Assembly: GCA_964596425.1 (NCBI GenBank)
Contig: CAZQTC010000023.1
Coordinates: 648,190 to 712,189 of the forward strand
Reading direction: 5' to 3'
From: an uncultured Spirochaetales bacterium
GTDB lineage: Bacteria; Spirochaetota; Spirochaetia; SZUA-6
Length of the DNA stretch: 64,000 nucleotides
Position 1 is the stretch's first letter. The number at the start of each line of letters is the position of its first letter. This document shows positions 4,553-64,000 of the stretch, piece after piece. A program made the translations under genes and the position numbers. Below the pieces are notes generated by a model, which saw nothing but the letters and a program-made list of their open reading frames with translations, had not been told where the DNA came from and did not search any database.

Positions 4553-5251
4553 TCAACTCCGCTTACCAAATATGGCTGTTCCAATTCTTAAAAGATTAGA
4601 ACCCTCTTCCACGGCTATTTCGTAATCACCTGACATCCCCATGGAGAGGATGTCAAAATCAAGTTCTGGATATTTATCTTTAGTTTTCTCAAATAACACC
4701 CTTAACTTATTAAATGCTTCTCGTATTTTCTTTTCATCATCCGTCAATGGTCCTACAGTCATTAACCCCCTTATTCGCAATTTCTCTAACTCCATCACCC
4801 TTTCAAGTACCGAGAAATACTCATCCTCACCTTTAAACCCAAACTTGGACTCTTCACCCGAGGTATTAATCTCAAAGAGAACGTCTATAATTCTTCCCAT
4901 TTCACCACACCGTTTATTAAGAGCCTCTGCCGTCTCATATTTATCTATTGACTGAACGGTATGAAAAATCCAGGCGGCAGTTTTAGCCTTGTTTCTCTGC
5001 AAATGTCCAATAAGATGTAGCTCCACAGGCTCACTTACTTGAATATACTTATCAAAAGCCTCGTTTACCCTATTTTCACCAAAGAGGGTAAAACCTGCTT
5101 TTATTGCCATCTCCACATATTCTACCGGAAAGGTCTTCGTTACAGCCATTATTCGAACTTCTTCTACCCTCCTATTAGATCTATCACACGCCCTCCTAAC
5201 ATTTTCTTTGATCCTCTCATAATTGTCCCGTATAGTTTCTAAATCAATCAT
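4553..5251 (-). CDS. yggS: YggS-family pyridoxal-phosphate homeostasis protein
   Basis: IMAVTKTFP (PLP lysine) and HLIGHLQRNKAK motifs; about 230 aa, as expected for an alanine-racemase-N-like fold. Confidence 0.8.
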   Translation of the reverse strand: MIDLETIRDNYERIKENVRRACDRSNRRVEEVRIMAVTKTFPVEYVEMAIKAGFTLFGENRVNEAFDKYIQVSEPVELHLIGHLQRNKAKTAAWIFHTVQSIDKYETAEALNKRCGEMGRIIDVLFEINTSGEESKFGFKGEDEYFSVLERVMELEKLRIRGLMTVGPLTDDEKKIREAFNKLRVLFEKTKDKYPELDFDILSMGMSGDYEIAVEEGSNLLRIGTAIFGKRS

Positions 5252-59558: not shown

Positions 59559-60485
59559 TCAATCCGGATTTGGTAAATTTATACCCTGCAAATCTCTTGT
59601 TAAGAAAGTGTTGGCGAATACAGATCGTGCCTCTTCCAAAAGCCGCTTCAAATCCTTTTCCGTATAACGAGGACTATAATGGATTAACCCCAATCTTCCC
59701 ACATTTCCTTCCTTTGCTATTTTTGCCGCCTGAACAGAGGTAAGGTGTTTTTTCTCCCTCGCACTCTCGAGTAACTCACTGGTAAACATTCCCTCACATA
59801 TCAGAAGATCAGAATCCCGTACATTACCGGCAATACTCTCTAGAAAGAGGGTATCAGTCACAAACGAGAACTTCCTTCCCCGCCTCTTCGGGCCCATAAC
59901 ATCCTCAGGATGGACTACTCTCCCATCCGAGGCCTTAACAGCTCTCCCGCTCTGCAGGGTCGACCACAGGGGTCCCTTCGGAACGTTTAATTTCATAGCT
60001 CGTTCCGGATAAAAAACTCCCGGTCTTTCATCCTCCTCAAAGGTGTAACCTACACATGGTTTTGAATGTAAAAGATTAAAACTCTTAACAGAAAAACCCT
60101 TCCTTTTGAAAATTACCCCCTCACCCTCTATCTCTTTAACCACAATCTCATAATTGATATACATATCCAAAATTTTTCTGTTTGCGTGCACATACTCCCT
60201 TATTTTCGGAGGCCCAAAAATATAGAGAGGTTCTTCTCTCTCCACCTGAGAGGAAAGCATAAGTATACCCGGAAGACCTGTTACATGGTCTGCATGTGTA
60301 TGAGAAATAAATATCGCACCAATTTTTTTCCATCTCAGATTAAGCCGTCTCAAGGCAATCTGGGTTCCTTCCCCACAATCAAACAAAAAAATTTCACCCT
60401 CCCGACGCAAAAGTACAGAGGTCAACCCCCTGTTAGGCAAGGGCATCATACCACCTGTTCCTAAAACAAACACCTCAAAACCCAT
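59559..60485 (-). CDS. rnz: Ribonuclease Z / MBL-fold hydrolase
   Basis: Starts MGFEVFVLGTGGMMP with the FISHTHADHV motif. The true start is likely the internal Met at 60485 rather than the track start at 60560. Confidence 0.7.
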   Translation of the reverse strand: MGFEVFVLGTGGMMPLPNRGLTSVLLRREGEIFLFDCGEGTQIALRRLNLRWKKIGAIFISHTHADHVTGLPGILMLSSQVEREEPLYIFGPPKIREYVHANRKILDMYINYEIVVKEIEGEGVIFKRKGFSVKSFNLLHSKPCVGYTFEEDERPGVFYPERAMKLNVPKGPLWSTLQSGRAVKASDGRVVHPEDVMGPKRRGRKFSFVTDTLFLESIAGNVRDSDLLICEGMFTSELLESAREKKHLTSVQAAKIAKEGNVGRLGLIHYSPRYTEKDLKRLLEEARSVFANTFLTRDLQGINLPNPD

Positions 60486-60730
60486 AGTCACCTCTAGCTT
60501 TCGTTTGTTTGAATTCAATCGGTAAAAGTTAATATAAATAAACAATTTGTTAAACACCAAATAGTGAAAATTTGTAACACATTAAAAAGCTATATTTGTG
60601 TCATTTTTATACAGATATACCCATATTAACCCACCCTGTATCATTTTTACCCTAAGAAACAACAACAGAACAAAACATATTAATCTCATCTATATTTCTT
60701 TACAACATAAGCAAATACATCCTGCAAATT

Positions 60731-60746
60731 TGGCATATTTATTGCT
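60731..60746 (+). promoter_or_regulatory. sigma54 (RpoN)-type -24/-12 promoter upstream of hsp20
   Basis: TGGCATATTTATTGCT matches TGGCACG-N4-TTGCW with the GG-N10-GC spacing exact. It lies about 55 nt upstream of the hsp20 ATG. Two 16-nt direct repeats sit at -160 and -120. Confidence 0.45.
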
Positions 60747-60800
60747 TATAAATCAGTGAAAAAATCGAAACAGAAAAATACAATGGAAGGAGGTGATAAT

Positions 60801-61223
60801 ATGAACCTGGTAAAGTACAAACCGACTGATATCTCATTCTTCGATTGGGATACAGTTTTAGATAGATTTTTTGAAGATCCTATCTTTGATACCAACGTTC
60901 CAGCAGTAGACCTGAAAGAGGAAGATGATAAATTCCTCATGGAGGTAGAACTTCCCGGTCTTACAGAAAAGGACATAGAACTGAAAATCGAAGGGAATCT
61001 GTTAACCCTTAGTTCCAAGAAAGAAATGACACGGGATGAAAAGAAAGACGGATACATAATCAAAGAGAGGAGACATACATCCTTTACTAGAAGTTTCACC
61101 TTGCCAAACTCAGTTGATAAAGACAAAATCGAAGCGGAGTTTAAAAACGGTTTACTCACGATAACGTTCCCCAAGATAGAATCTAAAAAGCCGAAACTTA
61201 TCAGTATAAAGAACAAGAAGTAG
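60801..61223 (+). CDS. Hsp20/alpha-crystallin family small heat-shock protein
   Basis: GAAGGAGGTG RBS lies 7 nt upstream of the ATG at 60801. The alpha-crystallin domain reads VDLKEEDDKFLMEVELPGLTEKDIELKIEGNLLTLS...FTRSFTLP...KNGLLTITFPK. Confidence 0.85.
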   Translation: MNLVKYKPTDISFFDWDTVLDRFFEDPIFDTNVPAVDLKEEDDKFLMEVELPGLTEKDIELKIEGNLLTLSSKKEMTRDEKKDGYIIKERRHTSFTRSFTLPNSVDKDKIEAEFKNGLLTITFPKIESKKPKLISIKNKK

Positions 61224-61249
61224 GCAGGGTCCCAGACAAAGAGAGCAAA

Positions 61250-61281
61250 AGAAGCCACCTTTGCTGGTGGCTTCTTTTTTG
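61250..61281. terminator. Bidirectional rho-independent terminator between hsp20 and the M16 peptidase gene
   Basis: AGAAGCCACC-tttgct-GGTGGCTTCT followed by TTTTTTG; an A-run precedes it, so it is also followed by T's on the minus strand. Confidence 0.65.
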
Positions 61282-61284
61282 TTT

Positions 61285-64000
61285 CTACTCCGGTAGCTCA
61301 AAAATATTCTTTGAGATTTTTTCGTCATGTTCCTTTTCTCTTTCTATCATTTCTCTACCAGCTATAACAACGGTTCCACCTTTGCTATATGCCGATTCGA
61401 GTTCGTGAGCGACCCGGACAATGGCCTCCCTGGAAGCAAATTTCATAATCTTTCTTCGTTCTTCTCTCAACTCATCCGTTATTTTCCCCAACAACCTTTT
61501 AAGACTTACAAACCCTTTCTCTCCCGGATCTATGGGGCGTTCTTCCCTTCCAATCGTACCCAGAATCGAATTTTTAAACTGCCTATCTGATAACTCCTCT
61601 ATCGAAGAAAGTCCATTTCTATATTCCAGAAGAGTGTTTACAATATTGGGGTCCCTATAAGAGCAAAGTACAAATGTCCCCTCACTACTATAATTAAAGG
61701 CAAAGGCACCGTAGGCCCCTCCCTTCATTCGAATTCTCTCCCAGAGGTAACCTGTACGTAATAGATGTGCCAGTATAGATTGAAAAGGCTCTCTTCCATC
61801 TCCAAACCGTCTTGCTTTTAACGCCTTAGAAACAAAACCAACTTTAGAAGAAACGGCAAGGGTTTCACATTCTCTTCCTGTTTTACCACTGATAAGAGGG
61901 TCCGCTTTTAGAGATTCAATAAACTCACTAAACCCTTTGCCTTTATTTACCATACCTTCCCTACCCTCTCCATGCGTAAATTGGTCAAGAAATTCCTTCC
62001 TAATGGCCATGAGCACATCATTCCTATCCTCCAGTGAAGCAGTAACATTTAGTATCATCTGGCCTTTAAGTATTATCTCTCGAAGAGACTCAAGGGTTTC
62101 TGCAAGTTCATCGATAAATCCGACTTCTCTATCTGCCTTTTCCACCAGATAATTCAAAAAGATATATTGTGACACACCCTGCCATATCTCCTCTATTCGA
62201 GCAGGCTTAGAAACCATACTTCTAGCCCTAAGCATTGCAAACAGATGCCCCTCTGGTATAAGCTCACCCTTAAAATCATTTCTAAACTCAACTAAAACGT
62301 TTTTTAAATGTTCTCTATCAGAAAAATCCGCCTTACAGATAATCTCTCTTACCAGCGATACCGCCCTACTGAATCTAGCCTTTAGAGCCTTAACCCTAAA
62401 AAACATATGAGTAGAAAATGTGTCTATAGGTTGCCCAACAATATTACTCAATTCAAGTGTGGTATAGAAACCGCCGGTAAATTTTGCCAATAATCTAGCC
62501 ACCTCATCGTACTTTTTATCTTTTAAACCACTTTTACAAATCACTCTTCCCAAAAGGGGAAGCAAAATTCTCATATTCTCATCTATATGCGAAATATCAA
62601 ACCCAATATCAAGATAGATTACACCATTAGTATAGATGTCATGAAAGTAAAGATCACACCCCTCCACATCTATTTCTTCTATGGGGATTTTCTCTACACT
62701 TTCAGGTATATCTTCCACCCTCAGAGTAGGAATTTTGTCCAGATCCTCCTTCGAATCAGGAGATTCTAGAAAGTTCCTTAACTTCTCCACTTCCTTTTTC
62801 ACCCTTTCTCTATCTGATTCCCCCATCAGAGAGACAATTTTTGCCAATTTTTCATCAATAGCAATAGAAATCCTATCCTTATACTCCGGGTCAGGATATA
62901 CAACCACGGTACTTCTATGCCTGTTATCGAGAAATACCTCTTTAATTAGACTTTCCAGCTTAAAACCATTATCTATCTCCGATTTTAATCTATCCATATA
63001 GTCGTTAAAAATAAGGGTCTCCTCTGGTTCTAAGCCATGCAACCATCCCCTTAGGGTTTTCCTCATCAATCTAAGGGCAAAAGGAGCGCCATTCCCCCTT
63101 ATTTCCCTATTCCTAAACTCAACCCTATGAACAGCAGCATCTACCAACTCCCTATCAATACCCTGAGCAACCAGCTCTTCAAGGGTATCAAAAACAAGAT
63201 TCTCTATCGCCTCTCTCCTTTCCCTATCCGTGCCTCGTAACCCTACCGAAAACACCGATTGTTTCAGCTCTGTAGTGAGTCCTGTACCAGGCGCTAGATC
63301 TTCTCCCAGTCTAGACTCTATAAGACGTTTCCGTAGAGGAGAACCAGGATTGCCTACCAGAAGTTCGGAAATAACCTCCATAATAATCAGTCTGTAGGGA
63401 TCAGTCACAGGAACAGCAGCCCAATTGAGCAAAACGGTGGTTTTTCTTCCAGTATCAGTTCCCTTCTTCAGAGGATAAGTCCTCTCTACAACCACCGGTT
63501 TACCCCACTCAGTTTGAAAAGGGATCTCCACGTTAATATCCAGAGGTTCAAATTTAGAGAGGAACTCTCTATTCAAAAAATCAAGATGTTTCTCAGTAGA
63601 TATATTTCCATATAGGAATATATGGGAGTTCGAGGGATGGTAATAACGGCGGTGAAAATTCAGAAATTTTTCATAGGTTAAATCAGGAATTGACCATGGT
63701 TCACCTCCAGAATCAAAACCATAGGGTGTATCCGGGAACAATGATCTATACGACATATCCTCCACAAGCACTTCCGGATCGGAATACGCTCCCTTCATTT
63801 CATTAAAAACAACACCAACAAAACGAGCTACTTTATCAGTTTCCCCTGATCCCAGAGAATTTCCAGAGGAAGACTCCCCTCCAAACTCAACATGATACGC
63901 CTCCTGCATAAAAGTTTCCTTCCGCATTAGAGGAAAAAACACAGCATCCCCATAGACAAGCATCAGGTTGTAAAAATCCTTCTCCACCAGACTGCTGGCG
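61285..64000 (-). CDS. M16C-family (PreP/pitrilysin-like) zinc peptidase, N-terminus beyond window
   Basis: More than 900 aa. The earliest in-window residues NLMLVYGDAVFFPLMRKETFMQEAYHVEF match the segment just after the HxxEH zinc motif of PreP-like enzymes. The motif itself must therefore lie past 64000. Confidence 0.65.
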   Translation of the reverse strand, partial: ASSLVEKDFYNLMLVYGDAVFFPLMRKETFMQEAYHVEFGGESSSGNSLGSGETDKVARFVGVVFNEMKGAYSDPEVLVEDMSYRSLFPDTPYGFDSGGEPWSIPDLTYEKFLNFHRRYYHPSNSHIFLYGNISTEKHLDFLNREFLSKFEPLDINVEIPFQTEWGKPVVVERTYPLKKGTDTGRKTTVLLNWAAVPVTDPYRLIIMEVISELLVGNPGSPLRKRLIESRLGEDLAPGTGLTTELKQSVFSVGLRGTDRERREAIENLVFDTLEELVAQGIDRELVDAAVHRVEFRNREIRGNGAPFALRLMRKTLRGWLHGLEPEETLIFNDYMDRLKSEIDNGFKLESLIKEVFLDNRHRSTVVVYPDPEYKDRISIAIDEKLAKIVSLMGESDRERVKKEVEKLRNFLESPDSKEDLDKIPTLRVEDIPESVEKIPIEEIDVEGCDLYFHDIYTNGVIYLDIGFDISHIDENMRILLPLLGRVICKSGLKDKKYDEVARLLAKFTGGFYTTLELSNIVGQPIDTFSTHMFFRVKALKARFSRAVSLVREIICKADFSDREHLKNVLVEFRNDFKGELIPEGHLFAMLRARSMVSKPARIEEIWQGVSQYIFLNYLVEKADREVGFIDELAETLESLREIILKGQMILNVTASLEDRNDVLMAIRKEFLDQFTHGEGREGMVNKGKGFSEFIESLKADPLISGKTGRECETLAVSSKVGFVSKALKARRFGDGREPFQSILAHLLRTGYLWERIRMKGGAYGAFAFNYSSEGTFVLCSYRDPNIVNTLLEYRNGLSSIEELSDRQFKNSILGTIGREERPIDPGEKGFVSLKRLLGKITDELREERRKIMKFASREAIVRVAHELESAYSKGGTVVIAGREMIEREKEHDEKISKNIFELPE

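Follow-up and report, generated by a model that had tools for sequence, protein, structure and literature searches.

What switches on a small heat-shock protein gene in a spirochaete is the question raised by this locus, which lies in a 64-kb stretch of DNA (hereafter the window; GC ~39%). Chaperone-gene induction in most spirochaetes is poorly known; RpoH is missing from Leptospira and likewise from many spirochaetes (PMC12655853, for Leptospira). A sigma-54 promoter in front of hsp20, as an earlier note on this DNA had proposed, would offer a concrete route for the control of proteotoxic stress. We examined the spacer upstream of hsp20 in the window and in related genomes, and the coordinates of its features are collected in Table 1.

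Table 1. Features of the hsp20 locus, given as window coordinates and ordered from the distal activator site to the terminator.
Feature	Position	Strand	Remarks
Putative distal activator site UAS1, TGTGTCATTTTTATACA	60597..60613		1 mismatch to TGTRTCA-N3-TGAYACA; centre ~-152 from predicted start
Spacer between UAS1 and UAS2	60614..60636		half-site-like heptamers ATACCCA (60617) and TAACCCA (60627), 10-bp step
Putative proximal activator site UAS2, TGTATCATTTTTACCCT	60637..60653		starts 94 nt upstream of TGG; exactly 40 bp from UAS1
AT-rich dyad element, TATATTTCTTTAC-AA-CATAAGCAAATA	~60689..60718		window copy of conserved palindrome TAATTCnTTATA-n-TATAAnGAATTA
Predicted sigma-54 (RpoN) -24/-12 element, TGGCATATTTATTGCT	60731..60746	+	unique in window; 70/80 loci
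Predicted transcription start, conserved GTG	60756..60758	+	11-13 nt 3' of -12 GC; anchored columns +25 to +27
Shine-Dalgarno, AGGAGGTGA	60788..60796	+	4 nt 5' of ATG 60801; strong; invariant among closest relatives
hsp20 CDS	60801..61223	+	140 aa, alpha-crystallin domain; monocistronic
Hairpin, probable terminator	61247..61278		13 pairs; T-runs on both sides/strands; common to hsp20 and convergent M16/PreP peptidase gene

The hsp20 product carries a PF00011 HSP20 domain in the gene call on an identical public contig, and an identical copy of the protein is found in the metagenome-assembled genome GCA_054028995.1. Its homologues (n = 264 at E ≤ 1e-10) keep the ELPGLTEKD and FKNGLL motifs, and those named by source are labelled Spirochaetota, Spirochaetales or Spirochaetes. 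A start at GTG 60756, where the mechanical open reading frame begins, was rejected because the call on the identical contig gives 140 aa from ATG 60801. The hairpin downstream of the gene is probably a bidirectional terminator for hsp20 and the M16/PreP-type peptidase gene. When neighboring genes were clustered across the hsp20 loci, no conserved neighbor of hsp20 was found, regulator or other.

On the minus strand, rnz starts at ATG 60485 (308 aa) in the gene call on the identical contig. The mechanical rnz frame is longer (59559-60560, minus strand; 333 aa from TTG 60560), and a GAGGTG upstream together with the gene call favors the 308-aa product. With rnz starting at ATG 60485, the rnz/hsp20 spacer spans 315 bp (60486-60800), the length that the earlier note had assigned to the divergent region. 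Its rnz-proximal half also contains a direct repeat, AATTTGTTAAACACCAAATAG / AATTTGTAACACATTAAAAAG, with copies 25 bp apart (window 60544-60589) and only partial conservation in the nearest relatives; this repeat may belong to an rnz promoter or operator.

Within the spacer we found a match to the sigma-54 -24/-12 consensus in the sense orientation, its end 54 nt before the hsp20 ATG (60801). The GG of TGGCATATTTATTGCT falls at 60732-33 and the GC at 60744-45, and the two doublets thus have the canonical distance of exactly 10 nt; the coordinates and the correct spacing given in the earlier note were confirmed. The element agrees with TGGCAC-N5-TTGCW at 10 of 11 specified consensus positions (the sixth position is T in the window and C in the consensus). 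On both strands of the 64-kb window, TGGCA-N6-TTGCW occurred once against a shuffle expectation of 0.16, and at least one match appeared in 14 of 100 window shuffles. Taken from the window by itself, the promoter call is only suggestive.

What makes the call decisive is conservation. We collected 80 loci encoding Hsp20 relatives from species-representative genomes, of which 76 were labelled spirochaete, the exceptions being two Alphaproteobacteria and two Bacteroidota MAGs. The pattern TGGCA[CT]-N5-nTGC[AT] was present upstream of hsp20, on the sense strand, in 70 of these 80 homologous loci, against 0.09 matches expected by chance for 80 upstream regions. This expectation came from control sequence in the rest of the same loci (551 kb, both strands, 1.1 million strand positions), which held four other copies. 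The motif was absent from all four non-spirochaete loci. In most of the 70 loci it stood 44-80 nt from the hsp20 start codon, and in a motif-anchored alignment each position of TGGCAC and TGC carried 1.6-2.4 bits of information, against ~0 bits in the flanks. Because the loci span 31% to 67% GC and Hsp20 identities of ~40% to 88%, the motif is kept by selection and does not reflect a spacer inherited in common. Among the nearest relatives, with an Hsp20 identity of 88% and rnz-hsp20-peptidase synteny as in the window, the promoter keeps its GG and GC while its spacer bases differ, and the remainder of the intergenic region is poorly alignable. The earlier note had let its proposal stand or fall with conservation upstream of hsp20 orthologues, and there the motif is kept in about 70 Spirochaetota genomes in which the surrounding sequence is not. 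From these comparisons we infer dependence on sigma-54, and a functional hsp20 promoter of this type is almost certainly present. Transcription from the predicted start would yield a leader of ~44 nt.

Elements of other heat-shock systems were also sought. CIRCE, TTAGCACTC-N9-GAGTGCTAA, had no match in the window at ≤3 mismatches, in keeping with the earlier remark that none is present here. The HspR/HAIR operator (CTTGAGT-N7-ACTCAAG) and the sigma-32 promoter (CTTGAAA-N13-17-CCCCATnT) were both absent from the 315-bp spacer at ≤4 mismatches. The predicted leader is purine-rich and unstructured, its fold being no better than that of shuffles (z = +0.77), and with no Rfam family match in addition an RNA thermometer was rejected.

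Further upstream, two sequences 40 bp apart, start to start, had been described as direct repeats at 60597 and 60637; they read TGTGTCATTTTTATAC(A) at 60597-60613 and TGTATCATTTTTACCC(T) at 60637-60653. The positions and the spacing held, but the term direct repeat did not, as both are imperfect palindromes of 17 bp that belong to the TGTRTCA-N3-TGAYACA family and stand in tandem. UAS1 is the only match to the palindrome in the window with ≤1 mismatch; it forms a conserved island among the closest relatives and has a counterpart in most of the 71 anchored loci. UAS2 matches well in its left half, whereas its right half is degenerate (3 mismatches), an 'ACCCA'-type variant as in L007, L008 and L009.

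Nearly every hsp20 promoter was preceded by one to three copies of TGTRTCA-N3-TGAYACA, some of them perfect palindromes (TGTATCATTATGATACA in L042, TGTATCATAATGACACA in L056). Most striking among the conserved features is the spacing: in the hsp20 upstream regions, 40 of 69 pairwise distances between sites were exactly 40 bp; as a control, the 96 scattered matches elsewhere in the loci included no 40-bp pair. Spacings of 18-22 bp between sites were counted eight times, and a weaker third site was found within the 23-bp spacer in L049, L054, L028, L051, L013 and L014. The corresponding spacer of the window may be read as holding such a weak third site. Across 60607-60653 of the window, half-site-like heptamers recur at 10-bp steps (TTATACA, ATACCCA, TAACCCA and TTACCCT at 60607, 60617, 60627 and 60647).

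Enhancers of NtrC-family systems (NtrC, PrpR, ZraR) are 7-3-7 palindromes at which several phased dimers nucleate a hexamer. Dyad symmetry, conservation, position and the rigid 40-bp spacing support the view that the two palindromes are putative enhancer-binding-protein sites. In most loci the distance from the start of the proximal site down to the TGG of the -24 element is 89-107 nt, and the earlier suggestion that the repeats lie where such sites are expected is borne out.

Between the activator sites and the promoter lies a conserved AT-rich palindrome that the earlier note had missed. When the 93 nt 5' of the promoter were searched with an unbiased Gibbs sampler, it settled on an AT-rich 25-bp motif with two-fold symmetry, TAATTCnTTATA-n-TATAAnGAATTA, and the window's copy is a conserved island in the nearest relatives. 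In about two thirds of the listed loci the motif starts at -40 to -47 from TGG, and in roughly fifteen others it starts ~10, 20 or 30 bp further upstream; these shifts in steps of ~10 bp suggest a helical-phase constraint. It stands out within GC-rich spacers as well (for example L056, L043 and L040). Its position is that of IHF sites in proteobacterial sigma-54 promoters, but unlike an IHF site it is two-fold symmetric, and the E. coli IHF consensus WATCAANNNNTTR had no match in the window's element and a perfect match in 2 of 71 loci. The symmetry points to a homodimer as ligand, and we propose that the element binds a DNA-bending or co-activator protein.

The same arrangement was found at other genes. 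We scanned metagenome contigs for a proximal site plus promoter, using the degenerate pattern TGnnTCA-N3-TGAnnCA, and used only matches with a TGTRTCA half-site, as many of the others represent other bEBP systems. Also among the matches to the degenerate pattern were prpB (TGTTTCA...TGAAACA) and glnA loci in which bEBP genes are neighbors, and the recovery of these operons together with their activator genes supports reading the geometry as a bEBP site. Matches belonging to PrpR/prpB, NtrC/glnA and a 126-aa gene were set aside as separate bEBP systems.

The TGTRTCA-type matches included further hsp20 genes. In eight metagenome loci (L086, L110, L116, L122, L124, L130, L143 and L144), the promoter stood upstream of a gene for a 284-298-aa group-2 sigma factor, whose best NCBIfam scores were to the RpoS and RpoD models, both below cut-off, and whose named close homologues are all Spirochaetia, Spirochaetales or Spirochaetes. 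To guard against selection bias, three sigma-factor loci (L204, L206 and L208) were picked by protein identity, blind to the promoter. All three carry the full architecture (L204 7726-8000, L206 7645-8000, L208 7676-8000): TGGCAC-N5-TTGCW ~25-30 nt before the sigma-gene ATG, a pair of sites exactly 40 bp apart (7809/7849, 7807/7847 and 7810/7850, respectively) and the AT-rich palindrome. In each of them the sigma gene is divergent from a solitary groES. The 64-kb window contains no such RpoS-like sigma-factor gene, and the link comes from other genomes. The elements shared by both genes indicate that hsp20 and the RpoS-like sigma factor have one cis-regulatory design in Spirochaetia.

The genes for a sigma-54 factor and an activator were sought as well. 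Motif scans of the 64-kb window detected neither rpoN nor a bEBP gene, and a tblastn search for bEBPs gave the same result; by motif scan and tblastn, a bEBP was encoded within 4 kb of hsp20 in only one of the 80 loci (L028). According to a 2025 survey, all 15 of its Spirochaetia genomes carry one sigma-54 gene (PMC12316311). Related Spirochaetota loci do contain bEBP genes (L028, L209 and L210), with NtrC-type regulators in L028 and L209. A sensor-less bEBP of 317-335 aa, with AAA+ and HTH_8 only and a GAFTDA loop instead of GAFTGA, is encoded at L209 18797-19750 and L210 18812-19819 (both minus strand). Its gene, ~8 kb from that of the sigma factor, is flanked by rpsA and a TPR gene, and a CHASE2 adenylate/guanylate cyclase comes next. 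Treponema denticola has the same order of rpsA, bEBP and TPR (TDE2080-2079-2078; PMC3914990). The sensor-less bEBP is missing at that position in L204, and neither a UAS nor a sigma-54 promoter of its own was found. Since the rpsA-TPR synteny explains its position and it has no UAS or promoter of its own, the L209/L210 protein stays a candidate activator only; the NtrC-type two-component regulator in L209 is another.

We propose the following mechanism, to which as a whole we assign a probability of roughly 0.8. Sigma-54 RNA polymerase would transcribe hsp20 from the element at 60731-60746, starting near G60756-58, and an NtrC-family enhancer-binding ATPase would open the closed complex. The activator would bind as dimers to the two 17-bp palindromes (three in other genomes), which are 40 bp apart on roughly one helix face and precede the start by ~110-150 bp. 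The AT-rich palindrome would probably be occupied by a second protein, which, as a co-activator or by bending the DNA, would bring the activator to the polymerase. The inducing signal is presumably heat or proteotoxic stress. The same cis-architecture at the RpoS-like gene beside groES suggests a sigma-54 stress regulon that is conserved in spirochaetes and has the hsp20 promoter among its outputs.

Three other readings of the locus have to be set against this mechanism. That the motif and repeats of the window are functionless chance matches in AT-rich intergenic DNA would accord with the shuffle counts given above and with UAS-like matches (≤2 mismatches) showing no window-wide enrichment, but this reading is already refuted by the comparative data, which place the motif in loci of widely differing GC and Hsp20 identity as conserved islands in otherwise unalignable spacers. 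Alternatively, hsp20 could be read from a sigma-70-type promoter, with the TATAAT-like stretch after TGC acting as a -10 and TGGCAC/TGC as an overlapping operator. There is weak 'TaAt.AT' conservation downstream of the -12 element (0.3-0.5 bits) and a 9/12 sigma-70-like match at 60756-60784, the only one on the hsp20 strand of the spacer. That match is within chance expectation for the scanned region (60300-61400), where the scan gave no more sites than shuffles, and it would put the start inside the ribosome-binding site. Moreover, nothing at a workable distance is conserved as a -35, since the only TTGGCA is 11 nt from the AT stretch, and the strongest conservation falls exactly on GG-N10-GC. 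A sigma-70 promoter was rejected on these grounds, and we consider this reading highly improbable.

The remaining reading accepts the sigma-54 promoter as real and gives the palindromes to another factor, a repressor or an accessory activator, with the bEBP acting from solution in an enhancer-free manner. It would fit with the search described above, which tied no bEBP to the palindromic sites in the window or the 80 hsp20 loci, and with Borrelia, whose rpoS sigma-54 promoter, as described in PMC3037356, works from a minimal fragment, with Rrp2 acting without a demonstrated enhancer. However, a position of ~-110 to -150, dyad symmetry, 7-3-7 geometry and fixed helical phasing are typical of NtrC-family enhancers, and the same pattern retrieves bona fide bEBP-controlled operons. 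We judge an enhancer-free bEBP unlikely here, and favor an NtrC-family activator at the paired sites.

The proposed enhancer resembles NtrC/PrpR/ZraR-type enhancers (17-bp 7-3-7 palindromes bound through HTH_8) in length, in symmetry and in the phased copies ~100-150 bp upstream, whereas its half-site, TGTRTCA, is distinct, its 40-bp pairing is strict, its targets are hsp20 and an RpoS-like sigma gene, and no adjacent activator gene was found. In Myxococcus, a heat-shock gene is under sigma-54 in the HsfA/HsfB-lonD system. The earlier note had called an RpoN-controlled small heat-shock protein an unusual wiring; the sigma-54 reading is supported, but precedents exist. In E. coli, ibpB has a sigma-54 promoter, with sigma-54 binding by ChIP, as summarized in PMC2831329 (citing Kuczynska-Wisnik et al. 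2001), and as here an IbpA/Hsp20-family gene follows a -24/-12 promoter. That promoter, as described there, lies within the ibpAB operon, is weak (TGGTAA...TTGCT), has no defined enhancer and supplements a sigma-32 promoter, whereas the spirochaete promoter is apparently the sole one of hsp20, is near consensus and has a conserved two-site enhancer and a third element. The 2025 survey (PMC12316311) predicts clusters of heat-shock genes under sigma-54 for Bacteroidota and Planctomycetota. The chaperone and heat-shock genes under sigma-54 in these clusters and in Myxococcus (GroEL, IbpA, DnaK, GrpE, lonD) belong to other phyla, and the enhancer motif is not shared.

A parallel within the phylum is the Rrp2-RpoN-RpoS cascade of Borrelia burgdorferi, where a sigma-54 promoter also drives an RpoS-like sigma-factor gene. 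By analogy, the gene under hsp20-type architecture parallels that cascade, its product being likened to RpoS by NCBIfam scores below cut-off. The systems differ in that Borrelia has no known Rrp2 enhancer and hsp20 is not a described target there, whereas the loci studied here have paired sites and hsp20 as a target. The Fur-family protein BosR of Borrelia binds an AT-rich sequence just upstream of, and overlapping, the rpoS -24/-12 element (PMC3037356). The BosR repeat TAAATTAAAT differs from the palindrome described here and the motifs are not obviously alike, so for this element the BosR parallel is a lead only. A wider possibility is that an ancestral, Spirochaetota-wide sigma-54 stress regulon existed, in which hsp20 and the RpoS-like sigma factor would be co-activated by one bEBP at paired sites together with a second protein, bound as a dimer to the AT-rich palindrome. 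Borrelia Rrp2-RpoN-RpoS-BosR would then descend from it in reduced form, its enhancer lost, and a BosR-like co-activator would ancestrally have had its site at the AT-rich palindrome. We put this forward tentatively and regard it as rather doubtful.

No description of sigma-54 control of hsp20 in spirochaetes was found in the literature: hsp20 is not mentioned as a sigma-54 target in the Leptospira and Borrelia reviews and regulon papers or in a broad comparative study. For Spirochaetia, the 2025 survey (PMC12316311) reports neither sigma-54 heat-shock clusters nor the sHSP orthologous group in its text or in those supplementary files that could be consulted. The mechanism is well known in kind, and the regulon itself, with its enhancer motif, strict 40-bp pairing, AT-rich palindrome and pairing of hsp20 with an RpoS-like sigma factor, appears to be undescribed. 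For the RpoN-RpoS switch of Borrelia, which is of medical importance, the RpoS-like gene beside groES would provide a counterpart in free-living spirochaetes, and the architecture touches two puzzles of that system: the apparent lack of an enhancer, and what BosR does there as an additional DNA-binding protein. The two motifs defined here, the 17-bp and the AT-rich palindrome, and the pairing at 40 bp can be used to map the regulon in complete spirochaete genomes and to find its activator.

Several further observations were made along the way. Five metagenome loci (L088, L093, L156, L164 and L170) encode a 126-127-aa protein of uncharacterised function behind a sigma-54 promoter and a TGTTTCAGGATGAGACA or TGTTTCAGCATGAGACA site, with a bEBP gene on the same contig, and appear to form a sigma-54 system of their own that is uncharacterised. 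In L099 and L166, a bEBP gene is accompanied by a similar site, TGTTTCAGTTTGAGACA, and the shorter ORF called there (84 aa, from an internal start) can be aligned with the C-terminal portion of the 126-127-aa protein. In L038, a second sigma-54-type element, TGGCATGCTTCTTGCA (4688-4703, plus strand), lies directly downstream of hsp20, in front of a small gene whose hydrophobic product is probably a membrane protein or secreted; no activator site is present within 260 nt. Finally, GC skew is negative in all 4-kb bins of the window (1-64000; -0.01 to -0.32), which is consistent with a single replication arm and with the strong strand bias that spirochaetes typically show.
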